DNA of 64,000 nucleotides from Pirellulales bacterium. GTDB lineage: Bacteria; Planctomycetota; Planctomycetia; Pirellulales; UBA1268. Both the position numbers and the translations under genes were made by a program. Every line of letters starts with the position of its first letter. Positions within the stretch are counted from its first letter, which is position 1. The DNA lies in contig JADHSL010000007.1 of assembly GCA_016776925.1 (NCBI GenBank), forward strand, positions 4,821-68,820, given 5' to 3'. Positions 9,947 through 60,355 of this stretch are shown here, piece by piece. The notes under the pieces are model-generated. The model did not search any database, was not told where the DNA came from, and was given only the letters and a program-made list of their open reading frames with translations.

Positions 9947-10174
9947 GGTATTCCTCCTCCACCTTTATGATTTTAGAAACAAATAGCATAGTGCTCAAAC
10001 CATGTTGAATGCAAAACAAACCTTACGTAGTGCCAGCTCGTTCATTATTTCAACACTGGTTAGTACCAATTCTTGCTTCAATTTTACAAAGAAGAATATC
10101 TTGTGTAATACTTCAATTTGATAAGCATTTTTCAATAAAAAGAGATTACTACCTCATACAGCGAAAAGACTACC

Positions 10175-16867: not shown

Positions 16868-17635
16868 TTATTGTGGTACTGCAACCATCACATCATCCAC
16901 CCATGCCTCAGTAGTAACTGCCAGGCGGATCCGCCGCTTGGTCTCGTGCCCTATACCAGGTGATACCAAACGTCCAATCTCACGTCCGTCTATTTTTACG
17001 GACATCAGGTTTCCATTCACAACAATTTTCAAGTCATGCCAGACATCTGTTTTCAGTTTCATTGGAACAATACTTGATTTGGTGGCGATTTGTTTTTTCT
17101 CTGCCTTCGTTAACTTCTTGGCTTTGTTCTTTTCATGTATCTCTTTGCGCATTCGCCCCGTCTTGAGATCAACAATTTCAAGCGACGCCGGTTTGATTCG
17201 TGCCATACATATATGGCCAGCATGCACGGTTTTTTCGCTCATGTCCGCAATATTGACACCTAGGTCTCCCTGTTTTGGAAGCATAAATTTTGCGGTAATA
17301 CAGACATCCTGAAACGCCACGTCATGAGTGACTGATACTCCGTGGTCGGCTACTGCTGCGCGTTTGATGAACATAGCACCATCGCGAAGGAACACCTGCT
17401 TCTCACCTTTTGCACGTGCCTTACTGTTGGTGCCCCATCCATTTCCAGGATTTTCCTTACTTGCATTGCCCTCGGTTCGGTCAAAGCGATCTTGGAAAAT
17501 AATCTTCGCCTCGCGGTCTCCAGCTTGGACAAAAACACCTCCTACCGTGCACAACGACCCAATCCCAACAACCAAAGTCACAAGAATCTGATGTAATACA
17601 TTTTTTTTGGTGATATATATCTTCACTGTTCTCAT
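16868..17635 (-). CDS. secreted concanavalin/LamG-like (DUF1080-like) domain protein
   Basis: N-terminal hydrophobic anchor. Beta-rich domain ending DVWHDLKIVVNGNLMSVKIDGREIG. The family call is weak. Confidence 0.5.
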   Translation of the reverse strand: MRTVKIYITKKNVLHQILVTLVVGIGSLCTVGGVFVQAGDREAKIIFQDRFDRTEGNASKENPGNGWGTNSKARAKGEKQVFLRDGAMFIKRAAVADHGVSVTHDVAFQDVCITAKFMLPKQGDLGVNIADMSEKTVHAGHICMARIKPASLEIVDLKTGRMRKEIHEKNKAKKLTKAEKKQIATKSSIVPMKLKTDVWHDLKIVVNGNLMSVKIDGREIGRLVSPGIGHETKRRIRLAVTTEAWVDDVMVAVPQ

Positions 17636-30507: not shown

Positions 30508-31443
30508 CTAGCCTGCAGAATGTGTTGCAATTTTATGGCCGCGGCGGAACTCTGCGGGAGCAATTCCGAAGACCCGCTTAAATGCACGCGAGAACTGATA
30601 CTGGTCTGGGTATCCAAGACGATGGGCAGCTTCTCGAACCAGTACCTGCTCATGGGCAAGCCATTCTGCAGCAAGACTCATCCGCTGCCGTGTTAATAGC
30701 CGATACGGGCTATCCTCACCGAATCGTGCAAAAAGGCGGCAAGCGTACTCGGGCGAAATTCCTGCGACGGCACAGGCCGATTCCACTGACTGCCATTGGA
30801 CACAACGATCCACCAGTATTCGCCGAAATTGTTCATAGCTTTTGAATGCACGGTCATCAATGACTTCTTCCGACAAAATCCGCTGATTGATCTTCGCCAG
30901 AAGAACTCCCAACAACTGAGTACAAAGGGTCTCGCTATGGACAGATGGCGGCGACCCACATCGCAACATCAAGTCGAAGATTTCACGGACTTCATCTGGA
31001 TGACTCACCCTCGTCACAGACCCCGCTGTAAGACCCATCCTCCGCAGTCTCGAGCCGGCCTGCCTGCCTACGAAATCAACGTAGTGCTTTCGGAGTAGAT
31101 GCTTTGAGTCAGTTTCTATCCGATGGGGCATACCCGGACCGTACGTAAAGAGCATCCCGGCGTGAATTGGCAATGCTTCCTGAGGCTGCCCGTCCGCAGC
31201 ACGTTCCCCAAACCAGACCTTCCCCTTGCCGGCACAGACAAATTCAATGCAAAAATAGGGAAAGTCATTTCGACTGACTACATAGTCTTTCCGTACATGT
31301 TCATACCCTCCGCAGGCCACTGCAAGCGATTGGGAACGATCTGGGAGCAAGTCCACAAAATAACGCTGTGAAGTTGCCACCTGCCGAGAAACGAAGGAGG
31401 GGAGTCTTTTTCCGGCAGATCGCAGAGAATGTTTTTTCACCAT
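30508..31443 (-). CDS. AraC-family transcriptional regulator (cupin sensor + HTH)
   Basis: C-terminal AraC HTH: REAAHRLGYPDQYQFSRAFKRVFGIAPAEFRR. The N-terminal region is cupin-like. Confidence 0.85.
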   Translation of the reverse strand: MVKKHSLRSAGKRLPSFVSRQVATSQRYFVDLLPDRSQSLAVACGGYEHVRKDYVVSRNDFPYFCIEFVCAGKGKVWFGERAADGQPQEALPIHAGMLFTYGPGMPHRIETDSKHLLRKHYVDFVGRQAGSRLRRMGLTAGSVTRVSHPDEVREIFDLMLRCGSPPSVHSETLCTQLLGVLLAKINQRILSEEVIDDRAFKSYEQFRRILVDRCVQWQSVESACAVAGISPEYACRLFARFGEDSPYRLLTRQRMSLAAEWLAHEQVLVREAAHRLGYPDQYQFSRAFKRVFGIAPAEFRRGHKIATHSAG

Positions 31444-31447
31444 GAGA

Positions 31448-31489
31448 TCAAGAATAGCTATCCTTTAGTCAAGAATCACTATCCTCCAG
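31448..31489. promoter_or_regulatory. tandem 21-bp direct repeat, candidate AraC-type operator in the divergent promoter region
   Basis: TCAAGAATAGCTATCCTTTAG (31448-31468) is immediately followed by TCAAGAATCACTATCCTCCAG (31469-31489), 17/21 identical. The pair lies 5 nt from the araC-like ATG and 68 nt from the ATG at 31557. Confidence 0.45.
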
Positions 31490-31556
31490 TACTGTTCGAG
31501 GCTTTAACCTGTTTTGGCGTGTCGGACCCGTCAAATCCTTAACCCAACAGACTATT

Positions 31557-32804
31557 ATGCGAACACTTCCCCGGTTCTCTTTTGGTGTCGGCGACCGTTT
31601 TGGTCATGAAGCCACCGCACAACTTGCCGCTTTTCAACACCTTGCACGGGAAGGGATTCACGTCGCACCAGTCTGGAATAAATCCCACCGAGAACACGGG
31701 TTCATTGGCAGCCAGCCCAAAGATGTGCGGGTGGCCGCAGCCTCAGCCATCGCTGAGTCTGGCTGGGATGGTCCATGGTATGTCGATGCTGATCATATTC
31801 GGCTCGATACAGTCGATGGGTATCTCGACTCCAGTGATTTTTTCACAATTGATGTAGCTGATTCAATTGGAGAGCCCGCTGATGAGTCAGATATCCGAAC
31901 ATTTATTTCTGCTCACCCAGAACTGTGCAAGCCAGTTTCTATCCCTGGTATCACGAAGGTGATACGTCTCTCCGAAGACAGTACCGCGACTATTGTCCGC
32001 AAGTATTACAAAGCCTGCAGAGACGCGGCGACGATCTATAACCATATCGCCGAATCACGTGGTGATGACGTTGTTGTCGAAGTCAGTATGGACGAAACAG
32101 ACGAGCCACAAACGCCTCCAGAACTACTTGTTATCTTGGCCCTGTTAGCTGATGAGAAGATTCCGGTGCAGACTATCGCCCCCAAGTTTACTGGTCGGTT
32201 TAACAAAGGTGTCGACTATGTTGGTGACCTCGCGCAATTCGAACAAGAGTTTTCTGATGATGTAGCTGTCTGTGGTTTTGCAGTCCAGCAATATGGGCTA
32301 CCCGACACGTTAAAACTTTCAGTGCATTCTGGCAGCGATAAGTTTTCACTCTATCCCATCATTCGACGGGTACTCAATGCAACTGGGGCTGGCGTTCATC
32401 TCAAAACTGCTGGTACCACGTGGCTCGAGGAGTTAATCGGTCTCGCGGAAGCGGGAGGTGACGGACTTCAATTAGTACGTGACGTCTATCAATATGCGAT
32501 CGAGCATCGCGACGAACTCTGCGGCCCGTACGCAACCGTCATTGACATCGACCCATCACAACTTCTCTCAGTGGAAGACTTTGGGCTTCTTTCAGGCCCC
32601 GACACCGCTGCAACTATTCGACACATTCAGGATGATAAACGGTTTAACCCTCATGTCCGCCAGTTACTCCATATCGCCTTTAAGGTTGCAGCAGGAGAAG
32701 GCGAACGATATACCGATTTGCTCAAAGAACATCGTGTCGTAGTGGCCGACCAAGTTACAACAAATTTGTATGATCGACATCTTCGGCCACTCTTCGCACA
32801 GTAG
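31557..32804 (+). CDS. UxaE-like (tagaturonate/fructuronate epimerase family) TIM-barrel protein
   Basis: SFGVGDRFGHEA and WYVDADHIRL resemble the UxaE-family motifs as I remember them. The CDS itself is well supported; the function is tentative. Confidence 0.45.
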   Translation: MRTLPRFSFGVGDRFGHEATAQLAAFQHLAREGIHVAPVWNKSHREHGFIGSQPKDVRVAAASAIAESGWDGPWYVDADHIRLDTVDGYLDSSDFFTIDVADSIGEPADESDIRTFISAHPELCKPVSIPGITKVIRLSEDSTATIVRKYYKACRDAATIYNHIAESRGDDVVVEVSMDETDEPQTPPELLVILALLADEKIPVQTIAPKFTGRFNKGVDYVGDLAQFEQEFSDDVAVCGFAVQQYGLPDTLKLSVHSGSDKFSLYPIIRRVLNATGAGVHLKTAGTTWLEELIGLAEAGGDGLQLVRDVYQYAIEHRDELCGPYATVIDIDPSQLLSVEDFGLLSGPDTAATIRHIQDDKRFNPHVRQLLHIAFKVAAGEGERYTDLLKEHRVVVADQVTTNLYDRHLRPLFAQ

Positions 32805-32844
32805 CCCGTGCTGTCATGATCATGCCCTAACCAGAAAGCCCCGC

Positions 32845-33678
32845 ATGAAATCGGCTATCACAATTTGCCTGGTACCAGAAGCAGCACGTGGACCATTTGT
32901 TTTCCATGAAGGACTTTCTGCTAGTTGTCAAAATGCAGCGGATGCCGGCTTTGACGCAGTTGAAATATTTCCACCAAGTGCGCATGAATTTCCGACGAAG
33001 GAACTCAAAACCCTGCTTGAACAGACGTCTCTCAATCTAGCTGCCGTTGGAACCGGCGCCGGCTGGCTGAAACGACGCCTCTCCCTCACGGACACCGATT
33101 CGGACAAGCGTCGTGAGGCCGTACAGTTCATTTCAGAAATTATTGACGTCGCAGCCGAGTTCGGCGCGCCTGCCATCATTGGTTCGATGCAAGGCCAAGC
33201 AGGTGACGTAACCCAGCGGTCAGATTCACTGGCTTTCCTCGCTGACACCCTACACACGCTCGGTAACCAAGCAGAGCGTCACGGGCAGGTGCTACTCTAC
33301 GAACCGCTGAATCGTTATGAAACGAATCTACTGAACACCCAGGAAGAAGCTGCGAAGTATCTTATCGAGCATTCTCTTGTGGACAGTGGCGTACGGCTCC
33401 TCTGTGATCTCTTTCATATGAATATCGAAGAGCAGAATGTGCCAGAGACAATAATTCGTCTCGGTGCTCTTCACACAGACCTTATTAGTCACGTGCACTG
33501 GGCCGACTCAAACAGGAGGGCAATGGGCTTTGGACATACTGATTACCGTGCAGTCTACAACGCTCTCAACGCAGTCGGATATGACCGTTATCTAGCTGCG
33601 GAAGTTTTTCCACTGCCTTCAGCAATTGAAGCAGCCAGCCAAACCATTTCTTCGATTGAGGCCTCTACCTCGTCATAG
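32845..33678 (+). CDS. sugar phosphate isomerase/epimerase (xylose isomerase-like TIM barrel)
   Basis: Pattern GFDAVEIF...YEPLNRYETN...DLFHMNIEE...HVHWADSNR, typical of AP_endonuc_2/IolE-like proteins. I chose the ATG at 32845 (MKSAITICL). Confidence 0.8.
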   Translation: MKSAITICLVPEAARGPFVFHEGLSASCQNAADAGFDAVEIFPPSAHEFPTKELKTLLEQTSLNLAAVGTGAGWLKRRLSLTDTDSDKRREAVQFISEIIDVAAEFGAPAIIGSMQGQAGDVTQRSDSLAFLADTLHTLGNQAERHGQVLLYEPLNRYETNLLNTQEEAAKYLIEHSLVDSGVRLLCDLFHMNIEEQNVPETIIRLGALHTDLISHVHWADSNRRAMGFGHTDYRAVYNALNAVGYDRYLAAEVFPLPSAIEAASQTISSIEASTSS

Positions 33679-33710
33679 CCACCATCTCTAGACACGAACT
33701 AACTGATACC

Positions 33711-34175
33711 ATGTTGAGCACACCACTACTCCACCCTGAAATTCTTAAAAATATCGCACTCGGTGGACATCACTCACTCATACTCATAGCCGATGGCAAC
33801 TATCCAGCTGCCACCAAACGTGGCCCAAACGCCGACGTAGTGCCGCTTCAACTCATGCCCGATGTGCCAACGGTTGCCCAGGTTTTCCAGGCAATTCTGG
33901 GAACCATCCAAATCGATGCGGTTCAGACAATGGGGGTCGACAGAGACGACTCATATGCGGCTGCCACTCCGGGCGATCCACCGGTTTGGGAACAGTACCG
34001 AAGTCTTCTCAAAGCTGCTGGAAGCACCTGTGTTCTGGATCCTATTGTGAAATGGGACTTCTACACCGCGGTCGATTCCGCTGATCACATACTCACCGTG
34101 CAAACAGCTGATACCCAACCGTGGGCGAACCTTCTCCTCACTATTGGATGCCGTACATTCAATTCCGCAAACTAA
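33711..34175 (+). CDS. fucU: RbsD/FucU family mutarotase (L-fucose mutarotase-like)
   Basis: LLHPEILKNIALGGHHSLILIADGNYP is the characteristic RbsD/FucU N-terminus. About 150 aa. Confidence 0.8.
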   Translation: MLSTPLLHPEILKNIALGGHHSLILIADGNYPAATKRGPNADVVPLQLMPDVPTVAQVFQAILGTIQIDAVQTMGVDRDDSYAAATPGDPPVWEQYRSLLKAAGSTCVLDPIVKWDFYTAVDSADHILTVQTADTQPWANLLLTIGCRTFNSAN

Positions 34176-34199
34176 GGTTTCATACTAAAGAGAGTATCC

Positions 34200-35132
34200 A
34201 TGCAGACCAGACCTCTTGGCACCACTGGACTTGAAGTCCCAATCCTTTCCTTTGGCGCCTCATCGCTCGGACAAGAATTCCGAAAAATTACACTTGATGA
34301 AGCCATGTCCAGCGTTCGGGTGGCGATTGACAACGGCATGCGTCTCATCGACACAAGCCCTTTCTATGGCCGTGGGATGAGTGAAATTATGCTGGGTCTT
34401 GCGCTCCAAGATATACCCCGCGACGACTACCTGCTCTGCACAAAACTTGGCCGGTATGATGTAGGACACTTTGACTTCTCGGCAGATCGCGTGGCTGAAA
34501 GTGTCGACATATCATTACATCGACTCGGCACCGACCACCTCGACATCATGCTCTGTCATGACATTGAATTTGTCCCTATGCAACAGATTGTGGACGAAAC
34601 TCTCCCCGCACTCCGACAAGCACAGCAGGCTGGGAAAATTCGTTTTATCGGGTTCAGTGGCTACCCACAGAAAATCTTTCGTTTTATCTGCGACCAGGCA
34701 GATGTCGATTGTGTTCTAAACTACAACCAATACACGCTTCAAAACACACTCTTTACTGACGAAACGGTGCCCTATCTTCAGGAAAAGGGTATTGGTGTCA
34801 TGCATGCTGGTCCATTCAGCGCACGTCTTTTGACAGACGCCCCACTTCCACCTTGGCTCAAAGAACCTGAGAACGTTCGCCAAGCAGCACGTGAGGCTGT
34901 TAAATGTTGTCATGAGCATGGGTCGTCATTAGCCAAGCTTGCCCTTCAGTTCTCGGTTGCCAATCCTGCAATAGCAACAACTGTTGCAGGAAGTGCGAAC
35001 CCCAAAAATATTCGCCAATGGGCAGAATGGCTTCAAGAGCCTCTGGATGAGCAATTACTTCAAACTGTACTGAAGATATTCGAACCCGTGAAGAACATCG
35101 GGCACAGCGAGGGCCTTCCAGAAAATAATTAG
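34200..35132 (+). CDS. aldo/keto reductase (aldose 1-dehydrogenase-like)
   Basis: MQTRPLGTTGLEVPILSFGASSLG, IDTSPFYGRG and LHRLGTDHLDIMLCHD. Confidence 0.85.
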   Translation: MQTRPLGTTGLEVPILSFGASSLGQEFRKITLDEAMSSVRVAIDNGMRLIDTSPFYGRGMSEIMLGLALQDIPRDDYLLCTKLGRYDVGHFDFSADRVAESVDISLHRLGTDHLDIMLCHDIEFVPMQQIVDETLPALRQAQQAGKIRFIGFSGYPQKIFRFICDQADVDCVLNYNQYTLQNTLFTDETVPYLQEKGIGVMHAGPFSARLLTDAPLPPWLKEPENVRQAAREAVKCCHEHGSSLAKLALQFSVANPAIATTVAGSANPKNIRQWAEWLQEPLDEQLLQTVLKIFEPVKNIGHSEGLPENN

Positions 35133-35183
35133 ACCGCTCTCCTCATTACTCGTAGCCACCGATTCCGCTCATACTGTCAACCC

Positions 35184-36020
35184 ATGAACATTGACTCTCA
35201 CCACCATTTCTGGAAGTACACCGCCGACGAGTACCCTTGGATATCTACCGGGATGAGACGTCTGGCACGCGACTACTTGCCGGCTGACCTTATTAAAGCG
35301 ACACAGCCTCATGACATCACGGGTTCAGTAGCAGTACAAGCCCGGCAAACAATACAGGAAACACAATGGCTCCTTGAGCTGGCTGCTAACTACTCTTTCA
35401 TACGTGGCGTTGTCGGCTGGGTAGATCTCAGAAGCCCTTCGGTCAGTGAAGACCTCGAAAGATTTTCCGAGAATGACAAGTTTGTTGGTGTTCGGCACGT
35501 CGTGCAGGACGAACCAGATCCGCGATTTCTATTAGGCAATGACTTCGTGCGTGGGCTCCGTTACTTGCCGGCATATAACCTGACATACGATATTCTGGTC
35601 TTCCCTCATCAGTTACCTGCTGCTTACGAACTCGTGAAATTGTTGCCTGACCAACCTTTTGTCTTGGATCATATGGCCAAACCCGATATCGAGCACCACG
35701 CGATTTCTGAATGGAAGCGGCACTTCAACGCACTGGCAGAGCATGAAAATGTAGTCTGCAAACTCTCTGGACTGGTAACCGAGGCGAATTGGAACGTGTG
35801 GCAGCAACGTGACTTCACGCCATATCTTGATGTCGCGCTGGAAGCGTTTGGTCCAGAACGACTACTCTACGGTAGCGATTGGCCCGTCTGCCTGCTCTCC
35901 GCTGAATATGCGGAGGTACTCTGCATTGCAAACAGCCTTATTGACCGAGTCTCTCTTCATGAAGCCAAAGCCATACGTGGCACAAATGCAACACAGTTCT
36001 ATGGCCTTCAGGACGAGTAA
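35184..36020 (+). CDS. amidohydrolase-2 family protein (L-fucono-1,5-lactonase-like)
   Basis: N-terminal IDSHHHFW metal motif, VLDHMAKPD and YGSDWPV. Confidence 0.8.
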   Translation: MNIDSHHHFWKYTADEYPWISTGMRRLARDYLPADLIKATQPHDITGSVAVQARQTIQETQWLLELAANYSFIRGVVGWVDLRSPSVSEDLERFSENDKFVGVRHVVQDEPDPRFLLGNDFVRGLRYLPAYNLTYDILVFPHQLPAAYELVKLLPDQPFVLDHMAKPDIEHHAISEWKRHFNALAEHENVVCKLSGLVTEANWNVWQQRDFTPYLDVALEAFGPERLLYGSDWPVCLLSAEYAEVLCIANSLIDRVSLHEAKAIRGTNATQFYGLQDE

Positions 36021-36039
36021 CCACACCCTTCCCCCTTGA

Positions 36040-37089
36040 ATGAAATTGATTTCCATGCAAGCACTTCAACTCGTTGAACCCAAGCGATGGGCAATGATAG
36101 AGATACCAGAACCAGCTCAGCTTCAGCCTGGTGAGGCACTTGTTCGGGTCGAAGCAGTCGGCATCTGCGGGACTGACTACAGTGGTTTCCTAGGGAAAAT
36201 GCCGTTCTTTAGTTACCCGAGGATTCCAGGCCATGAGCTTGGCGTTGAGGTGATTGGCATTGGAGAAGACGTCACAAACATTACAGTCGGTGATCGTTGT
36301 TGCGTGGAGCCGTACATCAATTGCCAGAAATGTCACTCATGTCGTCTTGGCAAAACCAACTGCTGCGAGCATCATCAGACCCTCGGCGTACACTGCGACG
36401 GCGGGCTCCGGCCTCAATTTATCGTCCCGGCGAGAAAACTCCACCCGTCTCCTAATCTCTCCGCCGAGCAGAATGCACTTGTCGAAACCCTTGCCATTGG
36501 GTGCCACGCAGTTGACAGGGCCAATATTGACTCAAAAGATACCGTTCTTGTCATCGGTGCCGGGCCGATCGGCCTATCTGCTATGGAATTTGTCCGTCTC
36601 GCGGGAGCCCGGCTCCTCGTCATGGATATGGTTCAAAGTCGCCTCGACTTTGTAACTCAAACCTACGGCCTGACTGACACTATCTGTGCTGATGGCACCG
36701 AGGCGGATCTCAACGCAGTCGCCGAACTCACCGACAATGAATTCTGTGACGTTGTCATTGATGCCACCGGCAGTGACCGCAGCATGAACCGCTCACTTGA
36801 ATTTGCTGCATTCGGTGGCCGAGTCGTCTACGTTGGGATAACTCAAGGAACTCTTTCGTTTCCCCACGCGCCACTCCTCCATCGTCGGGAACTAACAATT
36901 CTTGCAAGCAGGAACGCTTTATCACGGGATTTTGATCGCATTATCAAAGAGATTGAGGCTGAACGAATTAATACCGCACCGTGGATAACCCATCGAATGA
37001 GTTGGACTGAACTCCCCGATCAATTCCCGCACCTTGTTGACCCATCCAGCGGCGTACTCAAGGCAGTTGCTACAGTCGAATCAACCTAG
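36040..37089 (+). CDS. zinc-dependent medium-chain alcohol/polyol dehydrogenase
   Basis: GICGTDYSGFLG, GHELGVEV, structural-Zn cysteines CQKCHSCRLGKTNCC and VIGAGPIGL. Confidence 0.85.
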   Translation: MKLISMQALQLVEPKRWAMIEIPEPAQLQPGEALVRVEAVGICGTDYSGFLGKMPFFSYPRIPGHELGVEVIGIGEDVTNITVGDRCCVEPYINCQKCHSCRLGKTNCCEHHQTLGVHCDGGLRPQFIVPARKLHPSPNLSAEQNALVETLAIGCHAVDRANIDSKDTVLVIGAGPIGLSAMEFVRLAGARLLVMDMVQSRLDFVTQTYGLTDTICADGTEADLNAVAELTDNEFCDVVIDATGSDRSMNRSLEFAAFGGRVVYVGITQGTLSFPHAPLLHRRELTILASRNALSRDFDRIIKEIEAERINTAPWITHRMSWTELPDQFPHLVDPSSGVLKAVATVEST

Positions 37090-37140: not shown

Positions 37141-38718
37141 CTACTCATTCAGAAGACTGTCTGCAGCCACTCTTGGCGTGACTCCATCCTCGTCTACCCG
37201 CCGATTTGCAGTCCGCATCGCTGCCACAGATATCTGGTTAAGCAGTGGCTCAAGAACATGGACGAGATCTCTGTTCTTCGCTGCTCGTGGTGACAAAAGA
37301 AGAACCGCATCATAAGGGGGAAATGCCTCCTTCGGATCATTGAGTACAGCGAGATCAAAGGCTTCAATCCTGCCATCGGTAGAGAAGCCCGCTGCAACAT
37401 CGACCTGCCCATCTGCTACCGCTTGGTACATGAAAGTGGAATCCATTCCGACCTCAGTAATATCTGATAATGCATATAGGTTTCGCACCCGCTGCCATTC
37501 CGGCCGACCAAAAAATTCCGGGTCGCCGCCAATTCTGAGATCCTTCGCCACAGGAGTCAGGTTACCAATCTGCCTAAGCCCATACCTCTGCACGGTCTGA
37601 CGCCTGGCGACCAATGCATACGTGTTCTCGAACCCCAATGCTCCGGCGAGGACAATACCATACTCATCATAGAGCCTGCCGGCGACGGCAGCCCGCATCG
37701 CAATCCGGCTTATCGGGTCCGTCTCCTTCAAGACCGTGCTCCAAATTGTCCCTGTGTAGCCGACATAGACGTCGACTGTATTCTTGGCAAGCGCATTGAA
37801 AACGATTGTTGACCCCATATTACTGAGCACTTCCGGCGTACCACCAGCGTCCTCAATCTTTTCCCGAAGAATCTCCGCCAGAATAAATTGCTCCGTGAAT
37901 CCCTTGGCACCAATACGAACAACCTGCCCTTCGAGTGTGGTACGCAATGGACCGCTGCTATCTGATTTCTCGGACTCGTTCTCCTTTTCCTGCAGCTTTG
38001 AAAAGCCTGCCGCTTCTGGACCAAGAACACCCGGAACGATGCCCATCGCAACGAGGCCAACAATGGCACACATTGCGAGAGCCAAGGAGGTTTTCCGTCG
38101 TGATTGAATACTTGTTTCGATGACAGCTATGAGTTGGTCCAAAACCAGCGAGAGTGTCATCGTAGCAACGCAACCAAAAATCACTCGTTGCCAATCTCGA
38201 AGTTGCAGACCACTAAATATATAATTTCCAAGACTCGGTGCACCAACAGGCGTTGACAGCGTCGCAATACCGACAACCCATACCGTCGCCGTTCGAATGC
38301 CTGCAAGAATCACAGGGAAGGCAAGTGGCAATTCGACCCGAAACAGTTGCTGGAGCGGCCGCATCCCGACAGCTTTGGCTGCTTCGCGCATCGCTGGATC
38401 GACAGACTCCAGACCGACAATTGTATTTCGTATAATTGGCAAAATACTGTAGATGAGCAATGCTATAAAGGCTGGCCAATAGCCGATGGTACCCCCCAAC
38501 AAAGCAACCATAATGGCTAGCAAAGCAATACTGGGGACTGTTTGCACAAGAGACACCAGTGACATGACCGGGCCCCGTATGGTCGCAGACTTCACACAGA
38601 GAACACCGAGTGGCAGGCTGATTAGCACGCCGATAAATATTGCTGGCACAGCCAGTGTGAGGTGACCCCCTAGAAGATCTGGCAACTGTTCAAACAGGAG
38701 AGTGAGTCTGGGGCTCAT
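37141..38718 (-). CDS. betaine/choline-type ABC transporter, fused permease + OpuBC/OpuCC-like substrate-binding domain
   Basis: N-terminal 6-TM BPD_transp_1-like domain, one extra TM helix, then a C-terminal SBP domain (VVRIGAKGFTEQFILAEIL...GFENTYALV...DPKEAFPPYDAVLLL). The start overlaps the ATPase stop (ATGA). Confidence 0.85.
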   Translation of the reverse strand: MSPRLTLLFEQLPDLLGGHLTLAVPAIFIGVLISLPLGVLCVKSATIRGPVMSLVSLVQTVPSIALLAIMVALLGGTIGYWPAFIALLIYSILPIIRNTIVGLESVDPAMREAAKAVGMRPLQQLFRVELPLAFPVILAGIRTATVWVVGIATLSTPVGAPSLGNYIFSGLQLRDWQRVIFGCVATMTLSLVLDQLIAVIETSIQSRRKTSLALAMCAIVGLVAMGIVPGVLGPEAAGFSKLQEKENESEKSDSSGPLRTTLEGQVVRIGAKGFTEQFILAEILREKIEDAGGTPEVLSNMGSTIVFNALAKNTVDVYVGYTGTIWSTVLKETDPISRIAMRAAVAGRLYDEYGIVLAGALGFENTYALVARRQTVQRYGLRQIGNLTPVAKDLRIGGDPEFFGRPEWQRVRNLYALSDITEVGMDSTFMYQAVADGQVDVAAGFSTDGRIEAFDLAVLNDPKEAFPPYDAVLLLSPRAAKNRDLVHVLEPLLNQISVAAMRTANRRVDEDGVTPRVAADSLLNE

Positions 38719-39512
38719 CGCGCACCTCCAGACGCCTTGCCATGCAGAAGCGATTCAATGAAGTCGCTATGGCGACGAGGGGTATCGATAAGCTGAGCGA
38801 CGTATGCATTTACGGGAGAGGTTAACAGGACCTGGGGGCTCGCAACTTGTGCAATTTCACCTTTGTGCATGACTGCAATACGATCAGCAAGAAGAACCGC
38901 TTCTGACATATCGTGTGTCACAAGAACCACGCTCAACTCCAATTTCTTCTGGAGTGATCGAAACTCCTGCTGTAAGGCGTCACGAGTAATTGGATCGAGT
39001 GCACCGAAGGGTTCATCCATCAGAATCGCTTGCGGCTTCGATGCAAGCGCTCTGGCAAACCCAACCCGTTGTTGCTGCCCGCCAGACAGCTCTGATGGAA
39101 GCCGATCTCGATATTCATCAGCAGGCAAGTCAACCATTGTGAGCAATTCGTTCACTCGCTCAATAATTGAATTTTTGGTCCATCCCAGCAACTGCAGTGT
39201 GACACCAACATTCTGACCGACGCTCATATGGGGGAAGAGCCCAACGCCCTGGAAGGCATATCCAATTGAACGCCTGAGACCGACAGGATCAACATTTGTA
39301 ACATCCTCGCCCATGACCTTCACTGAGCCCGAAGTCGGCTCGATAAGCCTGTTAATCATTTTCAGTGTAGTTGTTTTCCCACTACCTGATCCCCCAACGA
39401 TAGCCAGAACTTCTCCCTGTGCCACGGAAAGGTCGACAGATTTTACTGCAGGCTCAACAGAATTTCCGAAACACTTCGTGAGGGAGACGAGTTCTATAGC
39501 GGGAACGTGCAT
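38715..39512 (-). CDS. ABC transporter ATP-binding protein (OpuCA/ProV-like core, no CBS tail)
   Basis: Walker A GGSGSGKTT, signature LSGGQQQRV, Walker B ILMDEPFGALD. ATG at 39512; the track uses the GTG at 39536. Confidence 0.9.
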   Translation of the reverse strand: MHVPAIELVSLTKCFGNSVEPAVKSVDLSVAQGEVLAIVGGSGSGKTTTLKMINRLIEPTSGSVKVMGEDVTNVDPVGLRRSIGYAFQGVGLFPHMSVGQNVGVTLQLLGWTKNSIIERVNELLTMVDLPADEYRDRLPSELSGGQQQRVGFARALASKPQAILMDEPFGALDPITRDALQQEFRSLQKKLELSVVLVTHDMSEAVLLADRIAVMHKGEIAQVASPQVLLTSPVNAYVAQLIDTPRRHSDFIESLLHGKASGGAR

Positions 39513-39564
39513 GTTCACCGGATGACTCCTAACCACACGGACAGTATTCTACCTACGAAACGAA

Positions 39565-40643
39565 TCAAACTGAGAGCGGTCGCAAACATGCCACCGCAAA
39601 GTCAGCCGCTTCGTCTGTCCAGATTTTCTCCAGGCCAAGGCCGCTTTCACGTGCAAGAGTCTCGAACTCATCTGGCGTGTACTTATGAGACTCCTCCATA
39701 CGAATTGCCTCACCAGCTTCGAATGTCACTACATCACCTGCCATCTCAACAGTGTGACTTTCGTCCACCCATAACCGACTGACAATCGCACCTTCATTCT
39801 CAACCCAATCGGCACGGAAGGAAAACTTGTCACGGTCGAGTCCCACGCCCAACTCGCTAGCAAGTCGATCGATGACATTATAATTAAATTCTGCAGTAAC
39901 CCCTTCGGCGTCGTTATAAGCAGCTTCCATTCGACCCTGATCTTTTTTGCAGTCAAAACCAACAACGACTGCGCCAGCTACACCGGCTTGCTCATCGTCA
40001 GCCTGCTCCCGAATCATGCTACCAAATGTTTCCAGAAGTGATGCTGCATCAGATCGACTAAAATTACCGACTGTTGAACCAGGAAAATATACTGCTCGAG
40101 AACGCACTGCTGATTCACATGTGGGGATTGGGTGTCCTTTTGTAAAGTCTGCCCAGACGGGTAACACTTCAATGTCATGCCTGTCCGCAATTGCAGTTGC
40201 TGACTCGAGGAGAAAATCGCGGCTGATATCCACTGGCACATAGGCAGCCGGGTCTGGCATAGCAGCTAGCAGAAGATCCGTTTTCAGACTTGCGCCGCTA
40301 CCGGGTTCAATGAGCATGCATCCATCACCAAAGGCTTTCCCAATGGCACCAGAAATCTTTCGCATCAGGGCGAGTTCAGTCCGTGTGATTTGTACTCATC
40401 CACTTCGCAGATTTGTTCGAATAGCATGCTTCCGCGTTGATCGTAATGCAACTTCGCAGGAAGTGACTTCTCTTTTGCGGTGAGGCCCTCATGTACTTCC
40501 TCAAGCAAAGGTCGCTGCTGAGGGGCAAATTCGAGAAGCTGAAGTCCGTCTTGTATCGCTACTTGTTCATTTTCCAACTGACACTCAAAAATATTCTCGA
40601 CGGACACGTATACCCCATTTCTTAGGCTCTGCCTGAGCAGCAA
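39565..40643 (-). pseudogene. egtD: EgtD-family (Methyltransf_33) amino-acid betaine N-methyltransferase, split by a 1-nt frameshift
   Basis: Track ORFs 40365..40643 (…LPAKLHYDQRGSMLFEQICEVDEYK) and 39565..40365 (…LIEPGSGASLKT…YFPGSTVGNF…AAYNDAEGVTAEFN…) together span a full EgtD-like protein. In the second frame the homology continues upstream of its ATG (ITRTELAL, compare EgtD EYYPTRTE). Confidence 0.8.
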
Positions 40644-40842
40644 AAACTGCTACTCAGGTCGTAAAAAACATACAGTTGCGTCTCCAATTGGATCAGCTTC
40701 CTCACCGAACCCTACAGCCCAGTTCGCAAATGATCAACAATTTTGCAAATATTACCGTCTATTTCAGGGTAAAACTGGCTTATTCAACACAACACCTAGA
40801 ATCCCCGCTTTGAAAAGCCCTATTTTCACGAGGTTTAGTCAG

Positions 40843-46055: not shown

Positions 46056-46823
46056 TTATTCGGCCTTGAGACGAATATCTTTGAATTCGGTCCACATGGA
46101 CTTTCCTGCGTGGAGCTGCAACCCGATGACACCTTTTTCACGAACAGTTGCCTGATCATTATTGACGAAGTCGATCACCTGTCGCCCATTTAAGTAGTGG
46201 CGTATGTGATTGCCTTCAGCAACGATGACGACATCATTCCAGCCATCGAGGTTAAACAGCTTTTGAAATTGGGGTTCGTCAACAAGCATTCCGGCAACTT
46301 CTTTCTCACCTTTTGCGTTGCGAATGCACTTCTCACCGATGTAACAGAGCCGTTTGCCTTTTCCCTTTTCGTCATAGATGAATGACGAGACACTAGGGAA
46401 ATCAATTTCGTTTCGCACTTCATGCTGATATCCAGCAAGAACCCAATCATTTTTTCGTTCAGTCAACCATTCGGACCGATACTGGATACCTGAATTATTT
46501 GTTGCATTACACCGAAAGGATAGCCGAAGCTCAAAGTCCCCGAACTCTTCTGGCATATCACCCGAACCGTTATAAATAAGGAATGTATTGCCACTTGTCG
46601 GATTTTTTTCTGTTGTTTCGCCATGAACAACTCCATCTCGTACGCTCCAAAGCCGTGAGTCACCGACCCAGCCGGTCAGATCTTTTCCATTGAAGAGTGG
46701 CTTCATGCCAGATGGTTCAGGTGTTACAGCTACCACTTCAACCGTCATCTCATCCGCTCGAACCTCATGGATTCCACAGAGAAACAAGACAACGAGAAAC
46801 ATACTGCCATATATTCGCACCAT
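46056..46823 (-). CDS. DUF1080 / 3-keto-disaccharide hydrolase family secreted protein
   Basis: LFNGKDLTGWVGDSRLWSVRDGVVHGE, FGDFELRLSFR, NSGIQYRS and GLQLHAG...EFKDIRLK. Confidence 0.85.
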   Translation of the reverse strand: MVRIYGSMFLVVLFLCGIHEVRADEMTVEVVAVTPEPSGMKPLFNGKDLTGWVGDSRLWSVRDGVVHGETTEKNPTSGNTFLIYNGSGDMPEEFGDFELRLSFRCNATNNSGIQYRSEWLTERKNDWVLAGYQHEVRNEIDFPSVSSFIYDEKGKGKRLCYIGEKCIRNAKGEKEVAGMLVDEPQFQKLFNLDGWNDVVIVAEGNHIRHYLNGRQVIDFVNNDQATVREKGVIGLQLHAGKSMWTEFKDIRLKAE

Positions 46824-49083: not shown

Positions 49084-49773
49084 ATGACAGAGATGACACA
49101 AATGACGTTCGCCCTACTCCGACGGCTGACCGGTTTTTTTATCGCTGGAGTTCTAGCGATTCTGCCAATCGTTGTCACGGTGGCGGTCGTGGTTTGGGTC
49201 GTTGAGTATCTCGAGTACCTCTGTGGACCAGAAACCTTCATTGGCCGGCAACTGACTGCCATCGGTATGCAGGTCGGCAAAGACGCATCGACTCCATATT
49301 TCCTGGGATGGTCCGTCGTCATCGTCGTTGTTTTCGCCGTTGGACTCCTCGTAGAATTGGGAGCAAAAAAATGGCTCGGCAAAACAGTCGAGAGTGCATT
49401 TAAGCGGATTCCGATCGTCGGCAGCATTTACAGTACAAGCCGCCAGATGATCGACATGATTGGCCCGAATGAAAACGATGCCATGAAGGGCATGACACCT
49501 GTTTTCTGTTCCTTTGGAAAAGAGGCTCCTTCACGGGTACTCGCACTACTGGTTTCTCCCGAACGATACACAGTGCTGGACCGTGATCATCTTATCGTTA
49601 TTATCCCGACCGCGCCAGTTCCATTTGGTGGCGCTATGATGTTCATACCTGTTGAAAACGTCGTTCCAGCGGGCATGCCAATTGACGGACTGATGAGTAT
49701 GTATCTGTCTATGGGCGCAACCGCTGGTCAATTTATGAAAACGCCAGCATCTGCAGATGACACAACACATTAA
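49084..49773 (+). CDS. DUF502 family membrane protein
   Basis: LLRRLTGFFIAGVLAILPIVVTVAVVVWV and IPIVGSIYSTSRQM. Confidence 0.7.
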   Translation: MTEMTQMTFALLRRLTGFFIAGVLAILPIVVTVAVVVWVVEYLEYLCGPETFIGRQLTAIGMQVGKDASTPYFLGWSVVIVVVFAVGLLVELGAKKWLGKTVESAFKRIPIVGSIYSTSRQMIDMIGPNENDAMKGMTPVFCSFGKEAPSRVLALLVSPERYTVLDRDHLIVIIPTAPVPFGGAMMFIPVENVVPAGMPIDGLMSMYLSMGATAGQFMKTPASADDTTH

Positions 49774-50314
49774 CAAGGCAACCTGGCTCTTGATCCTGTT
49801 GGCATGTGCAACAGGATGTCACACCACTACAGCAAAAGAGGGACTCTCTATGCCAGGAACCGTTGGTACCAAAGCGCCAGACGTTCAGTTTCATCTCCAT
49901 GATGGCAGTACAGTAAAACTTTCTGATTTCGAGAAACACCAATCAGTCGTACTTTTCTTTTACCCGAAGGACAATACACCTGTATGCACAAGCGAAGCCT
50001 GTTCCTTCAGGGATGCTTATCCAGACTTTGAAAGTCTCAATGCTGTGGTCATTGGTATTAGTAGCGACACGCAAGAAAGCCATAAAGGATTTGCTGAGAA
50101 ATATACTTTGCCATACCTGCTGGCGAGCGACCCTGATGGAGACTTACGAAAAGCCTTCGGTGTTCCCCGGACTCTCGGAATACTACCGGGTCGAACAACC
50201 TATGTAATCGACCAAAACGGGACTATTCGCCTCGCCTTTTCCAGCCAATTTTCTGCAGCCAAGCATGTAGAGAAAGCGAAAGAGACTCTTAATAAACTCC
50301 ACCTATCGAATTAG
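49757..50314 (+). CDS. bcp: exported peroxiredoxin (Bcp/AhpC-TSA family)
   Basis: FFYPKDNTPVCTSEACSFRD. The N-terminal signal may carry a lipobox (LLACATGC). Confidence 0.85.
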   Translation: MTQHINKATWLLILLACATGCHTTTAKEGLSMPGTVGTKAPDVQFHLHDGSTVKLSDFEKHQSVVLFFYPKDNTPVCTSEACSFRDAYPDFESLNAVVIGISSDTQESHKGFAEKYTLPYLLASDPDGDLRKAFGVPRTLGILPGRTTYVIDQNGTIRLAFSSQFSAAKHVEKAKETLNKLHLSN

Positions 50315-50321
50315 ATGTGTT

Positions 50322-50795
50322 ATGCCAGTATTTGATTTTTCATTTGAAGTGAATGCAGCGTTACCTGTGGTTCAGGCGTTTCATCACAACACCTCTGCTC
50401 TGAAACAGTTAACCCCACCACCGACCATCGTCCAGATACAATCTGTTGAACCACTTGCAGAGGGATCTGTATCGCGATTTACGCTGTGGGTGGGTCCACT
50501 TCCTTTACGATGGACTGCGATACATAAAAACGTCTCAGGCAATGGCTTTACTGATATTCAACAAAGTGGTCCCGCGGCAAAGTGGGAACACACTCACACG
50601 TTTACCGAAATCGACGCAACCCATACACGAGTCAATGAACACATTGAGTACGAGCATAAAAGTGGCTTCTGGGGCCTGGTGACGAGACTTCTTTTTTCGT
50701 ACCCCAACTTATACTTCATGTTTTGCTATCGTCGTTGGATCACCAGAAAAGCGTGTCACAACATGGCACAGAAATCCTCAGCAAAACATGCGTAG
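50322..50795 (+). CDS. SRPBCC (START/cyclase-dehydrase-like) family protein
   Basis: The size and the pattern FSFEVNAALPVVQAFHH...KWEHTHTF fit an SRPBCC ligand-binding fold. Confidence 0.55.
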   Translation: MPVFDFSFEVNAALPVVQAFHHNTSALKQLTPPPTIVQIQSVEPLAEGSVSRFTLWVGPLPLRWTAIHKNVSGNGFTDIQQSGPAAKWEHTHTFTEIDATHTRVNEHIEYEHKSGFWGLVTRLLFSYPNLYFMFCYRRWITRKACHNMAQKSSAKHA

Positions 50796-50831
50796 TCACA
50801 CGAGCACAAGACTCTGAATAGAACGGACACT

Positions 50832-51458
50832 ATGCAACCCGATTGGGACCAGCGGTATCGTCAGGGAGATACACCGTGGGACAAAGGGCGGGCATCACCG
50901 GCATTGATCGCCTGGCTCCAAGAGAATCATGGGCGCATGACAGGGTCCGTTCTCATCCCTGGGTGCGGTACGGGACATGATGTACGCGCCATTGCCACTG
51001 CCGAACCAACGTCTTTTCCAGTTGGAATTGATATCTCGAGAACAGCTATTGAAGCGTGCCGTCAAAATAAGGTCCGTGGGAACGAACGGTACGAGGAAGA
51101 AAATCTTTTCTCACTGCCAAAGACTTTATTTGGGACATGTGATTGGCTGTGGGAACATACATGTTTCTGCGCAATTGACCCAAAGGAACGGCTGGCGTAC
51201 GTGTCTGCTGTCGCAACAAGTCTTAAACCCGAAGGTTTACTTCTGGGCATTTTCTATCTGAACCCACGGACGAGTGACAACGAAGCAAACAATGGCCCAC
51301 CCCACGGCACGACCCTTCAAGAACTAAAATCACTTTTTCTCACTGACGACCTCTTTTCGCTCATAGAAATAATGGTTCCCCGTGGCTGCTACCCGGAGAG
51401 AGAAGGTCGTGAACAGCTTCTGCTACTCCGAAGAACAAAAAACCCGGTCATATCGTAA
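50832..51458 (+). CDS. TPMT-family SAM-dependent methyltransferase (thiol/halide methyltransferase-like)
   Basis: WDQRYRQGDTPWDKGRASPAL and SAM motif I VLIPGCGTGHD. Confidence 0.75.
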   Translation: MQPDWDQRYRQGDTPWDKGRASPALIAWLQENHGRMTGSVLIPGCGTGHDVRAIATAEPTSFPVGIDISRTAIEACRQNKVRGNERYEEENLFSLPKTLFGTCDWLWEHTCFCAIDPKERLAYVSAVATSLKPEGLLLGIFYLNPRTSDNEANNGPPHGTTLQELKSLFLTDDLFSLIEIMVPRGCYPEREGREQLLLLRRTKNPVIS

Positions 51459-55273: not shown

Positions 55274-55560
55274 GGTGGTAATGTCTCCTTCTCGTTGTGT
55301 TTCAATATCTTGTTTTTGCAGAGCGTCGAACACTGTATCTTAGGATGCGACTTTGACGGATGGGCAGTCTTTTCGGCCTGCGGTCTCGCTATCTCCTGAT
55401 CGTACGTCCAACTGTAGGGATCGTGCTGGTTCTCGGCCCCAAGTTATGCCTCCTGACAGGATGCACAACCACTGCCATACTCCTCTCGTACCTTCATTGA
55501 TCTGGTTATTTTTCGGAACCGTAAGCATTCAAGTAGTCCAAAACACGGAGACACGTGCAC

Positions 55561-56394
55561 ATGAAAAAATTCAATATTCGACCTAGTACCATGCCAAGCC
55601 TCGCCGGATTCTATCTGGCAGCGTGCACCATCTGCATCACAATTTGTCCAGTACCTACTGCAACCGCCGCAGAGTATCTTACCGGAATTGAATGGGAGGA
55701 ACCCAAGCAGGTGATACCTGGAAAAAACAATCAGGCCCCCCCAAGTGATGCCGTTGTTCTTTTCGATGGTGTGGATACAAACGCATGGAATAACGCGGAA
55801 ACATGGTCAGTAACAGATGGTTTCTTGATTGTTGGGAAAGGCATGATCAGCACAAAAGAGGCTTTTGGTGATTGCCAACTTCACGTGGAATGGTCAAGTC
55901 CACTCCCGGCTGAGGGAACCGGACAGGGGCGTGGTAACAGTGGCGTCTTTTTCGGGCCGTATGAAATTCAGGTTCTCGATTCATTCGAGAACGCAACCTA
56001 TTTCGATGGACAGGCCGCTGCGATCTACAAACAAACACCACCGTTGGTTAACGTCATGAGAAAGCCAGGAGAGTGGAACAGCTACGATATTATCTGGAAT
56101 ACCCCACGGTTTGATACAGAAGGAAACCTTACAGAACCTGCCACTGTGACTGTGCTTCACAACGGCGTGCTGGTACAAAACAACTTCGAGCTGCTTGGAG
56201 ACACTCCATTTAATCGGCCTCCCCGGTACCGGCCTCATCCGCCAGAACTTCCAATCCGACTGCAGGACCACAGAAATCCCGTACGTTTTCGAAACATCTG
56301 GGTTCGAGAAATTGCCCCAATACAGGGAAAACGAACACAACCACCGGCACTTCGGGATGGAAAAACGACTATGAAGTTACCCAAAACGGGATAA
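55561..56394 (+). CDS. DUF1080 / 3-keto-disaccharide hydrolase family secreted protein
   Basis: LFDGVDTNAWN, GNSGVFFGPYEIQVLDS, AAIYKQTPP and PIRLQDHRNPVRFRNIWVREI. Confidence 0.85.
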   Translation: MKKFNIRPSTMPSLAGFYLAACTICITICPVPTATAAEYLTGIEWEEPKQVIPGKNNQAPPSDAVVLFDGVDTNAWNNAETWSVTDGFLIVGKGMISTKEAFGDCQLHVEWSSPLPAEGTGQGRGNSGVFFGPYEIQVLDSFENATYFDGQAAAIYKQTPPLVNVMRKPGEWNSYDIIWNTPRFDTEGNLTEPATVTVLHNGVLVQNNFELLGDTPFNRPPRYRPHPPELPIRLQDHRNPVRFRNIWVREIAPIQGKRTQPPALRDGKTTMKLPKTG

Positions 56395-59902: not shown

Positions 59903-60355
59903 ATGTCACGTACGTTGCTTGCCCTCATTGCGTCCGCCCTTCTCTGCTCCACCGTTTTTGCACACTGTCAGGTCCCGTGTGGAATCTATGGTGACCAATT
60001 ACGATTCGAACAATTACTGGAAGACACGAAAACCATTGCCAAGGCACAGGGGCAGATCAATGAACTCGCCCCGTCCGCGAAAACTGGCCAGGACACCAAC
60101 CAGCTTGTTCGCTGGGTCGTTACAAAAGAAACGCATGCAGGGTCAATTCAAAATTGTATCGCTGACTATTTCCTTGCTCAGCGGATTAAATCTGATTCAC
60201 CGCGTTACACTGATCAACTCAAGGCCGCACATACCGTGACTGTGGCCGCGATGAAATGCAAACAGTCGACCGATGCAGCGACTGCTTCTGCGCTTGAAAA
60301 AGCTATCCATGACCTGTATCGCGCCTATGAAGGCAAAGAGCCTGACTTCCACTAA
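59903..60355 (+). CDS. sodN: nickel superoxide dismutase with a Sec-type N-terminal leader
   Basis: The Ni-hook HCQVPCGIY (compare HCDLPCGVY) directly follows a 20-aa hydrophobic leader, MSRTLLALIASALLCSTVFA. Confidence 0.85.
   Translation: MSRTLLALIASALLCSTVFAHCQVPCGIYGDQLRFEQLLEDTKTIAKAQGQINELAPSAKTGQDTNQLVRWVVTKETHAGSIQNCIADYFLAQRIKSDSPRYTDQLKAAHTVTVAAMKCKQSTDAATASALEKAIHDLYRAYEGKEPDFH

Follow-up and report, generated by a model that had tools for sequence, protein, structure and literature searches.

The known bacterial transporters of ergothioneine come from host-associated bacteria that do not produce the compound, and their specificity is tied to a few residues (PMC9732360). They are represented by EgtU/EgtUV of Streptococcus pneumoniae (SPD_1642-1643, 7TXK) and Helicobacter pylori (8DP6), in which two genes encode an ATP-binding cassette (ABC) ATPase without CBS domains and a permease placed N-terminally to a substrate-binding domain (SBD) of the PF04069 family. 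Here we describe a locus of the same architecture in a 64-kb stretch of DNA from a Pirellulales bacterium (contig JADHSL010000007.1; hereafter the window), where the importer genes stand directly beside a gene of the egtD family. Whereas EgtU has been described in bacteria not making ergothioneine, the transporter of the window and its relatives sits in or beside biosynthetic genes.

Two further described systems are close to this locus. OpuF of Bacillus (TC 3.A.1.12; cluster 2 in the sequence similarity network of Zhang et al. 2022) shares the permease-SBD fusion and the short ATPase; no member of this family beside egtB or egtD has been reported, and Zhang et al., who also left an uncharacterised "upper" subcluster from Acidobacteria and Cyanobacteria without assigned specificity, mention no such linkage (PMC9732360). 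ProX of Archaeoglobus fulgidus (AfProX; 1SW1/1SW2), which binds glycine betaine and proline betaine, belongs to an archaeal ProVWX system as a separate binding protein, neither fused to a permease nor linked to egt genes. As a precedent for the coupling of synthesis with uptake, producers of ectoine encode an importer, TeaABC or Ehu, for their own leaked product; the pairing considered here would resemble these in its logic of synthesis plus recapture and differs from them in solute, transporter family and gene organisation.

Each of the gene families involved is already known. In a literature search we found no paper on a linkage between egt genes and ABC importers of the OpuAC type, nor on such a pairing in planctomycetes, in line with the initial sequence-only reading of the window, which knew of none. 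An egt-linked class of importers is presented here as a testable lead and not as an established fact.

Results

Organisation of the locus

The three genes at 37141-40643 are co-directional on the minus strand in the order methyltransferase, ATPase, permease-SBD fusion (Table 1). The methyltransferase stop (39565) is separated from the ATPase start by 28 bp if translation begins at the GTG and by 52 bp if it begins at the ATG, which is the start used by gene callers on sister contigs. The ATPase stop and the permease start overlap in an ATGA (GCGCGATGAGCC), as is typical of operons. The ATPase matches ABC_tran only; its alignment to the proV model, which has 363 positions, runs from 7 to 232, and it hence has no CBS tail. 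In the fusion protein, BPD_transp_1 spans residues 35-204 (approximately 38107-38616) and the OpuAC domain residues 267-523 (approximately 37150-37920; E 5.7e-46), with an extra transmembrane helix and then an acidic, Ser-rich linker lying between the permease domain and the SBD. The shared orientation, the short gap and the overlap, the CBS-less ATPase and the EgtUV-like architecture had all been proposed in the sequence-only reading, and all were borne out. The divergent intergenic region upstream of egtD showed neither a sigma-70-like site nor a riboswitch, and scans of 36-42 kb for riboswitches (Rfam), sigma-70 promoters and terminators gave no hit in the gap that separates egtD from the ATPase gene.

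Table 1. Features of the egtD-importer locus and its divergent neighbour, in window coordinates.
Feature	Position	Strand	Remarks
5' egtD fragment, 92-codon open reading frame	40365..40643	-	aligns to residues 1-85 of intact 359-aa homologues P0001/P0002
3' egtD fragment, 266-codon open reading frame	39565..40365	-	different frame from 5' fragment
Frameshift lesion	40390..40391	-	net loss of 1 base; from alignment to L046, L012, L011, L001 and others
ABC ATPase of the ProV/OpuFA/EgtV kind, without CBS	38715..39536	-	273 aa from GTG 39536; 265 aa from ATG 39512
Permease-SBD fusion protein, 525 aa	37141..38718	-	BPD_transp_1 and OpuAC PF04069 profile matches
Divergent intergenic region, egtD/MscK-like gene	40644..40809	.	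presumed promoter(s)
MscK/MscM-like large mechanosensitive channel, 1156 aa	40810..44280	+	divergent from egtD; context only

The methyltransferase is predicted to be histidine-specific

In the window the egtD gene is split by a frameshift into two open reading frames (ORFs), and all profile scores given here were obtained on the protein repaired by one added base. The repaired protein matches PF10017 from end to end (E 1.6e-86; 290.6 bits against a cut-off of 23) and exceeds the equivalog cut-off of TIGR03438 (egtD), although by a thin margin (292.5 vs. 290.9 bits), while it scores 146 bits with the EasF profile, for which the cut-off is 205. Compared with EgtD of Mycolicibacterium smegmatis (Ms-EgtD, 4PIM; E 7e-41), it is alike in fold and retains all of the residues that confer histidine specificity (Y39, F47, Y56, N166, Y206, T213, E282 and S284 in Ms-EgtD numbering) as well as G161 of the substrate and S-adenosylmethionine (SAM) site. 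It differs from Ms-EgtD in an N-terminal extension of about 45 residues, in the frameshift of its gene and in Ser in place of M252, a replacement found throughout the window clade and, identically, in the two outgroup loci L006 and L007, where egtB adjoins egtD. Motifs of this kind reliably predict histidine specificity (Beliaeva and Seebeck, PMC9516567). Together, these features show the first gene to be one for a genuine EgtD-type L-histidine N-alpha-trimethyltransferase, with hercynine as its predicted product. The family assignment of the sequence-only reading thus stands, its picture of one open gene does not, and the further option that it had left, a betaine of another aromatic amino acid, is made unlikely by the full retention of the histidine-specificity residues.

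The search for an enzyme that would insert sulfur gave negative results throughout. tblastn with a planctomycete EgtB found no match within the 64-kb window. Of the 52 non-overlapping ORFs of at least 110 aa in the window, 50 were compared with Pfam (the other two being short, 116 and 128 aa), and the scan revealed no EgtB, EgtC, EgtE, OvoA, MES or EanB-like gene, no DinB_2/FGE-sulfatase protein and no EanB of the rhodanese type. The absence of EgtB/C/E and OvoA from the vicinity, reported at the outset, therefore holds. Nor was a gene for a sulfur-inserting enzyme found in the flanks of the 17 clade genomes. Homologues of the planctomycete EgtB are 55-61% identical across phyla and hence too alike for matches to be assigned to genomes. 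The window thus differs from the two-gene egtB-egtD clusters of Proteobacteria and Cyanobacteria, in which egtB adjoins egtD.

A recent frameshift interrupts egtD in the window strain

The 5' fragment of egtD covers the N-terminal extension along with the first of the substrate-binding residues (Ms-EgtD Y39, F47, Y56), and terminates out of frame (...DEYKSHGLNSP, then stop). The 3' fragment starts at an internal Met, the ATG of which overlaps the out-of-frame TGA, and carries the SAM-binding fold together with N166, Y206, T213, E282 and S284. The lesion hits the codon for Tyr57 in a conserved EYYxTRTE motif: where relatives read GAG TAC TAT ATC ACA (E-Y-Y-I-T), the window reads GAG TAC AA ATC ACA, TAT being replaced by AA, and one added base restores a 359-aa protein. 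The same allele occurs in four other independent assemblies (L090-L093, from SRR12042685, SRR12042686, ERR13325278 and ERZ24794679), which are 99.86-99.97% identical to the window across 3.66 kb. Because five assemblies including the window share it, the frameshift is real, and a sequencing error was rejected as its cause. For a programmed frameshift we found no evidence; relatives encode EgtD in a single frame.

The lesion must be recent, since an 8.5-kb contig 99.5% identical to the window (L094) has the intact TAT, this position being the sole gap between the two sequences, and since the homologue P0001, with 99% amino-acid identity to the window EgtD, is an intact protein of 359 aa. Further, egtD is intact in all 17 related clade genomes, and across 12 clade members the median dN/dS is 0.067 for egtD, 0.055 for the ATPase gene and 0.072 for the permease-SBD gene; egtD is under purifying selection across the clade. 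The intact relatives and the low dN/dS together indicate that egtD works and is under selection in the clade, and that in the window strain it has become a fresh pseudogene or a split gene. As a consequence, this strain probably cannot make hercynine. The transporter genes of the window are intact. In one of the other assemblies sharing the allele (L091, ERR13325278; 4648-6226) there is one additional indel, and the permease-SBD protein is called from a later start (474 vs. 525 aa); either a further mutation or a fault in the assembly could account for this.

Linkage of egt genes with OpuAC-type importers recurs across genomes

Throughout the clade of the window, comprising 17 genomes with permease-SBD proteins 65-90% identical to that of the window and several metagenomic contigs, the order egtD-ATPase-permease-SBD is kept with the MscK-like gene divergent. 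The nearest outgroups, L007 and L006, whose EgtDs are 56% and 50% identical to that of the window, carry the ATPase, permease-SBD, egtB and egtD genes on one strand with small gaps between them; their transporters are 43-54% identical to that of the window and have the same pocket. These four-gene clusters suggest that the arrangement in the window is derived, and that egtD stayed with the transporter through the rearrangement that removed egtB. A gene for an EamA protein (DMT family, often exporters) stands divergently beside the four-gene cluster in both outgroups (L006:5025-6026, L007:5299-6318), and the protein is a possible export partner of the cluster.

Among approximately 63 transporter homologues outside the clade, egt genes lie within a few kb at five loci from three lineages (L076, L038, L041, L006 and L007), and in L076, L038 and L041 the arrangement differs from that of the window. 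In the two Sulfomarinibacter-like loci, a conserved ORF of about 290 aa without a Pfam match is found on the opposite strand, with egtB on one side and the ATPase gene of the transporter on the other (L038:6948-7808, L041:8265-9158). Clustering of the neighbours of 80 transporter homologues revealed no ergothioneine catabolic gene or other partner beyond the ATPase, egtD, egtB and the synteny of the clade.

The association was also approached from the side of egtD, in a survey of 80 quasi-random, unrelated metagenomic egtD loci. In 56 of these egtB adjoins egtD, lying upstream in all but two cases. An OpuAC-type ABC system adjoins egtD in nine loci, in three fusion architectures: five have egtB, egtD, the ATPase and an SBD-permease in a row, one has the importer divergent from egtB-egtD, and one has it upstream of egtD. 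The remaining two (L117 and L109) consist of egtD, an ATPase and a permease that has a circularly permuted SBD as its fusion partner, with no egtB within 10 kb; here the OpuAC-type domain has its halves swapped and carries Gln at the position of EgtU Gly244 (L109:16177-17745, L117:12287-13849). As an internal control, an ABC ATPase of any kind was found in 13 of the 80 egtD flanks, and nine of these 13 belong to the OpuAC-type systems. The EgtDs of the nine linked loci all keep the histidine motif, and their SBDs all have discriminators of the AfProX rather than the S. pneumoniae EgtU (SpEgtU) type. The sequence-only reading had proposed a module for synthesis and/or salvage of a betaine. The functional pairing which this implies gains support from the four-gene outgroup clusters and from the nine linked loci of the survey; the synthesis of hercynine by this particular strain does not, owing to the frameshift.

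The binding pocket resembles that of glycine betaine binders

Among solved structures the SBD of the window is best matched by AfProX (E 1e-44), followed by S. pneumoniae EgtUC (1e-29) and OpuBC/OpuCC (1e-26), so that of the OpuBC/OpuCC-type fusion named in the sequence-only reading the fusion is upheld and the type is not. The overall identities differ little and are all low (window SBD to AfProX 35%, window SBD to SpEgtUC 29.5%, AfProX to SpEgtUC 36%); specificity is therefore unreadable from similarity, and the pocket residues alone are informative. The pocket is lined by K272, F274, Y321, T324, F363, N365, Y367, E401, R405, F445 and Y469, of which Y321, Y367, F445, Y469 and N365 form the cage, K272, T324 and R405 a carboxylate clamp, and E401 is the equivalent of EgtU Glu375. 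These residues are invariant in six orthologues and nearly invariant in 80 homologues. The aromatic cage and the Lys/Thr/Arg clamp predict a carboxylate betaine as ligand, and not choline.

The cage, the clamp and the Glu375 equivalent are common to EgtU (PMC9732360) and the window SBD. With AfProX the likeness goes further, in that the contacts K13, T66, R149, E145, F15 and F107 are all identical in the window SBD, and the ligand contacts differ solely in the cage: the four Tyr of AfProX (Y63, Y111, Y190, Y214) are represented in the Planctomycetota subfamily by three Tyr and one Phe, Phe445 standing at Y190, so that the aromatic character is kept. Phe445 is without the hydroxyl that bridges a water in EgtU (Y419).

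According to Zhang et al. (2022), EgtU and glycine betaine binders can be told apart by Gly244 (Phe15 in AfProX), Phe293 (Tyr63) and Tyr337 (Phe107) (PMC9732360). One homologue, from the cultured strain Maricaulis alexandrii LZ-16-1 (L056; NZ_SWKP01000006.1, gene 10001-11554), has Phe at the position of Tyr321 and Tyr at that of Phe363, which is the switch of the S. pneumoniae EgtU type and the sole such switch among the 80 transporter homologues; at the Gly244 position it has Tyr, not Gly. The pocket of H. pylori EgtU, compared here only via the two residues given in PMC12922746, has Pro and Gly at two sulfur-contacting positions, and this protein binds ergothioneine with an association constant (Ka) of 5e5 M-1 (PMC12922746). 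In the alignment AfProX likewise has Pro and Gly at those positions. The window SBD has Gly273 and Ser303 at the positions of SpEgtU Ile243 and Thr274.

Other genes of the window

Adjacency of the MscK-like gene to egtD is kept solely within the Pirellulales clade of the window. On the opposite strand, 3' of the transporter (30508-37089), a gene for an AraC-family regulator is followed by a plus-strand cluster that is syntenic across the clade and encodes a UxaE-like epimerase, a xylose-isomerase-like TIM barrel protein (IolO-like), an RbsD/FucU mutarotase, an aldo-keto reductase, an L-fucono-1,5-lactonase-like amidohydrolase and a Zn-dehydrogenase; it is probably a catabolic operon for a deoxy-sugar or sugar acid. 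About 10 kb from the egtD locus (49757-51458) there are genes for an AhpC/TSA peroxiredoxin and a thiopurine S-methyltransferase-like protein (TPMT) together with a small ORF without a Pfam match (50322-50795). The proximity of a thiol/thione S-methyltransferase to a thiol-related locus may be a coincidence.

Three paralogous genes for 3-keto-disaccharide hydrolases (PF06439) are found within 40 kb (16868-17635, 46056-46823 and 55555-56394), and a nickel superoxide dismutase gene (Sod_Ni, 59903-60355) is preceded by genes for a chemoreceptor and for a periplasmic binding protein of the amino-acid type. The window also carries DUF1559 and sulfatase genes, and this gene content together with its nearest relatives assigns it to marine Pirellulales/Planctomycetaceae.

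Discussion

The anatomy of the locus is secure. As to its role, the proposal that we favour, at about even odds, is that the locus derives from a cluster for ergothioneine synthesis plus uptake, and that hercynine or ergothioneine is the substrate taken up or recaptured through the importer. On this proposal, an ancestor would have carried the ATPase, permease-SBD, egtB and egtD genes together, as sister lineages do, and the window clade would have retained egtD beside the transporter while egtB was lost or relocated. The importer would take up or recapture histidine-derived betaines (hercynine and/or ergothioneine) released by the cell itself or by its neighbours, synthesis and uptake hence being co-expressed, and the strain with the frameshift, left with uptake only, would need an external supply. 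The logic of the operon favours a histidine-derived betaine, since the linkage recurs in approximately eight arrangements and three fusion architectures.

Several observations weigh against a histidine-derived ligand. The pocket residues favour a small betaine as the predicted ligand: at all three discriminators of Zhang et al. the window SBD is in the AfProX state (Phe274, Tyr321, Phe363), so that it has neither the invariant Gly244 of EgtU nor its Tyr-to-Phe switch. The sequence-only reading had named a pocket of the glycine-betaine type, together with a failure to bind hercynine or ergothioneine, as evidence against its proposal, and as far as the residues go such a pocket is what we find. 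Exchange of the first discriminator in SpEgtU (G244F) causes a 100-fold loss of ergothioneine affinity, although the variant retains binding with a Ka of 2e5 M-1 (PMC9732360). SpEgtU binds hercynine about 10^4-fold more weakly than ergothioneine, and an importer of hercynine would therefore be without a characterised precedent. Moreover, a search among the 80 homologues for pocket residues by which egt-linked and unlinked transporters could be told apart found none, the two groups sharing one pocket. For about 58 of the 63 homologues from outside the clade no egt gene lies within 10 kb, and inside the clade the whole neighbourhood is syntenic, which makes the adjacency of egtD and transporter there weak evidence on its own. 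Finally, egtD is broken in the window strain itself.

As the main alternative, the transporter may be an ordinary osmoprotectant importer of the AfProX/OpuF kind, for glycine betaine, proline betaine or dimethylsulfoniopropionate, its adjacency to egtD reflecting inherited synteny, perhaps with shared stress regulation alongside the MscK channel gene, without a common substrate. We regard this as a serious possibility, though we would not expect it to prove correct. It accords with a pocket that equals AfProX at K13, F15, Y63, T66, F107, Y111, E145, R149 and Y214, Y190 alone being replaced by Phe, with AfProX as the best match in the PDB, and with the finding that most homologues (from Alphaproteobacteria, Acidobacteriota and Verrucomicrobiota) share this pocket and are encoded in two-gene operons standing on their own. 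For the subclusters other than EgtU, Zhang et al. expect specificity for another quaternary amine (PMC9732360), and the host is marine, with a mechanosensitive channel gene divergently adjacent. Nevertheless, chance or synteny alone do not readily explain the number of arrangements and architectures in which egtB or egtD is linked to such importers, or the share of OpuAC-type systems among the ABC systems beside egtD; the MscK gene has this position in a single clade; and an identity to AfProX that is similar to the one between AfProX and SpEgtUC does not allow the specificity to be read. The MscK-like neighbour itself fits an osmoprotectant importer as well as one for histidine-derived betaines, as in Corynebacterium mechanosensitive channels have been suggested to release ergothioneine and betaine carriers to re-import it (PMC12689799).

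Two further explanations were weighed. That the methyltransferase is not histidine-specific and makes the betaine of Trp, Tyr or Phe for the transporter to handle, we consider very improbable: PF10017 does include such enzymes, the EasF profile scores 146 bits, M252 of Ms-EgtD is replaced by Ser and no sulfur-inserting enzyme was found in the 64-kb window, but EasF remains far under its cut-off while TIGR03438 is exceeded, the same Ser occurs where egtB is adjacent, and the imidazole-holding residues E282 and N166 are kept along with Y56, Y206, T213 and S284. It is likewise improbable, though less so, that the locus as a whole is decaying, with egtD a dead remnant and the association without present function in this organism. 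The frameshift allele in five assemblies and the further indel in the permease-SBD gene of L091 would be in keeping with decay; yet the lesion is a single change in a sequence that is conserved apart from it, egtD is intact in a strain with 99.5% identity to the window and, with dN/dS of about 0.07, in all other members of the clade, and the transporter genes of the window have remained open.

Returning to uptake of a histidine-derived betaine, the linkage outside the clade brings to mind a wider and more tentative proposal, which we think rather doubtful as a whole. Environmental bacteria of several phyla may possess an unrecognised class of histidine-betaine ABC importers, encoded in or beside ergothioneine genes and having a pocket that resembles that of glycine betaine binders without the determinants of Firmicute EgtU. 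The marine Pirellulales and at least one other lineage would have been reduced to egtD plus the importer, hercynine then being an end product or a shared good, and strains like that of the window would have lost synthesis and kept uptake.

If the linked importers do carry ergothioneine or hercynine, producers would take back what they themselves have made, the residues accepted as marks of ergothioneine recognition would have to be widened, and many "glycine betaine" transporter annotations in marine and soil genomes would be wrong. Modules in which egtD is the sole egt gene would moreover allow a direct test of the long-standing question of a role for hercynine in its own right. If the importer carries glycine betaine instead, the recurrent linkage would point to ergothioneine synthesis being co-regulated with osmotic stress, a connection for which evidence has so far been indirect only (PMC12689799).

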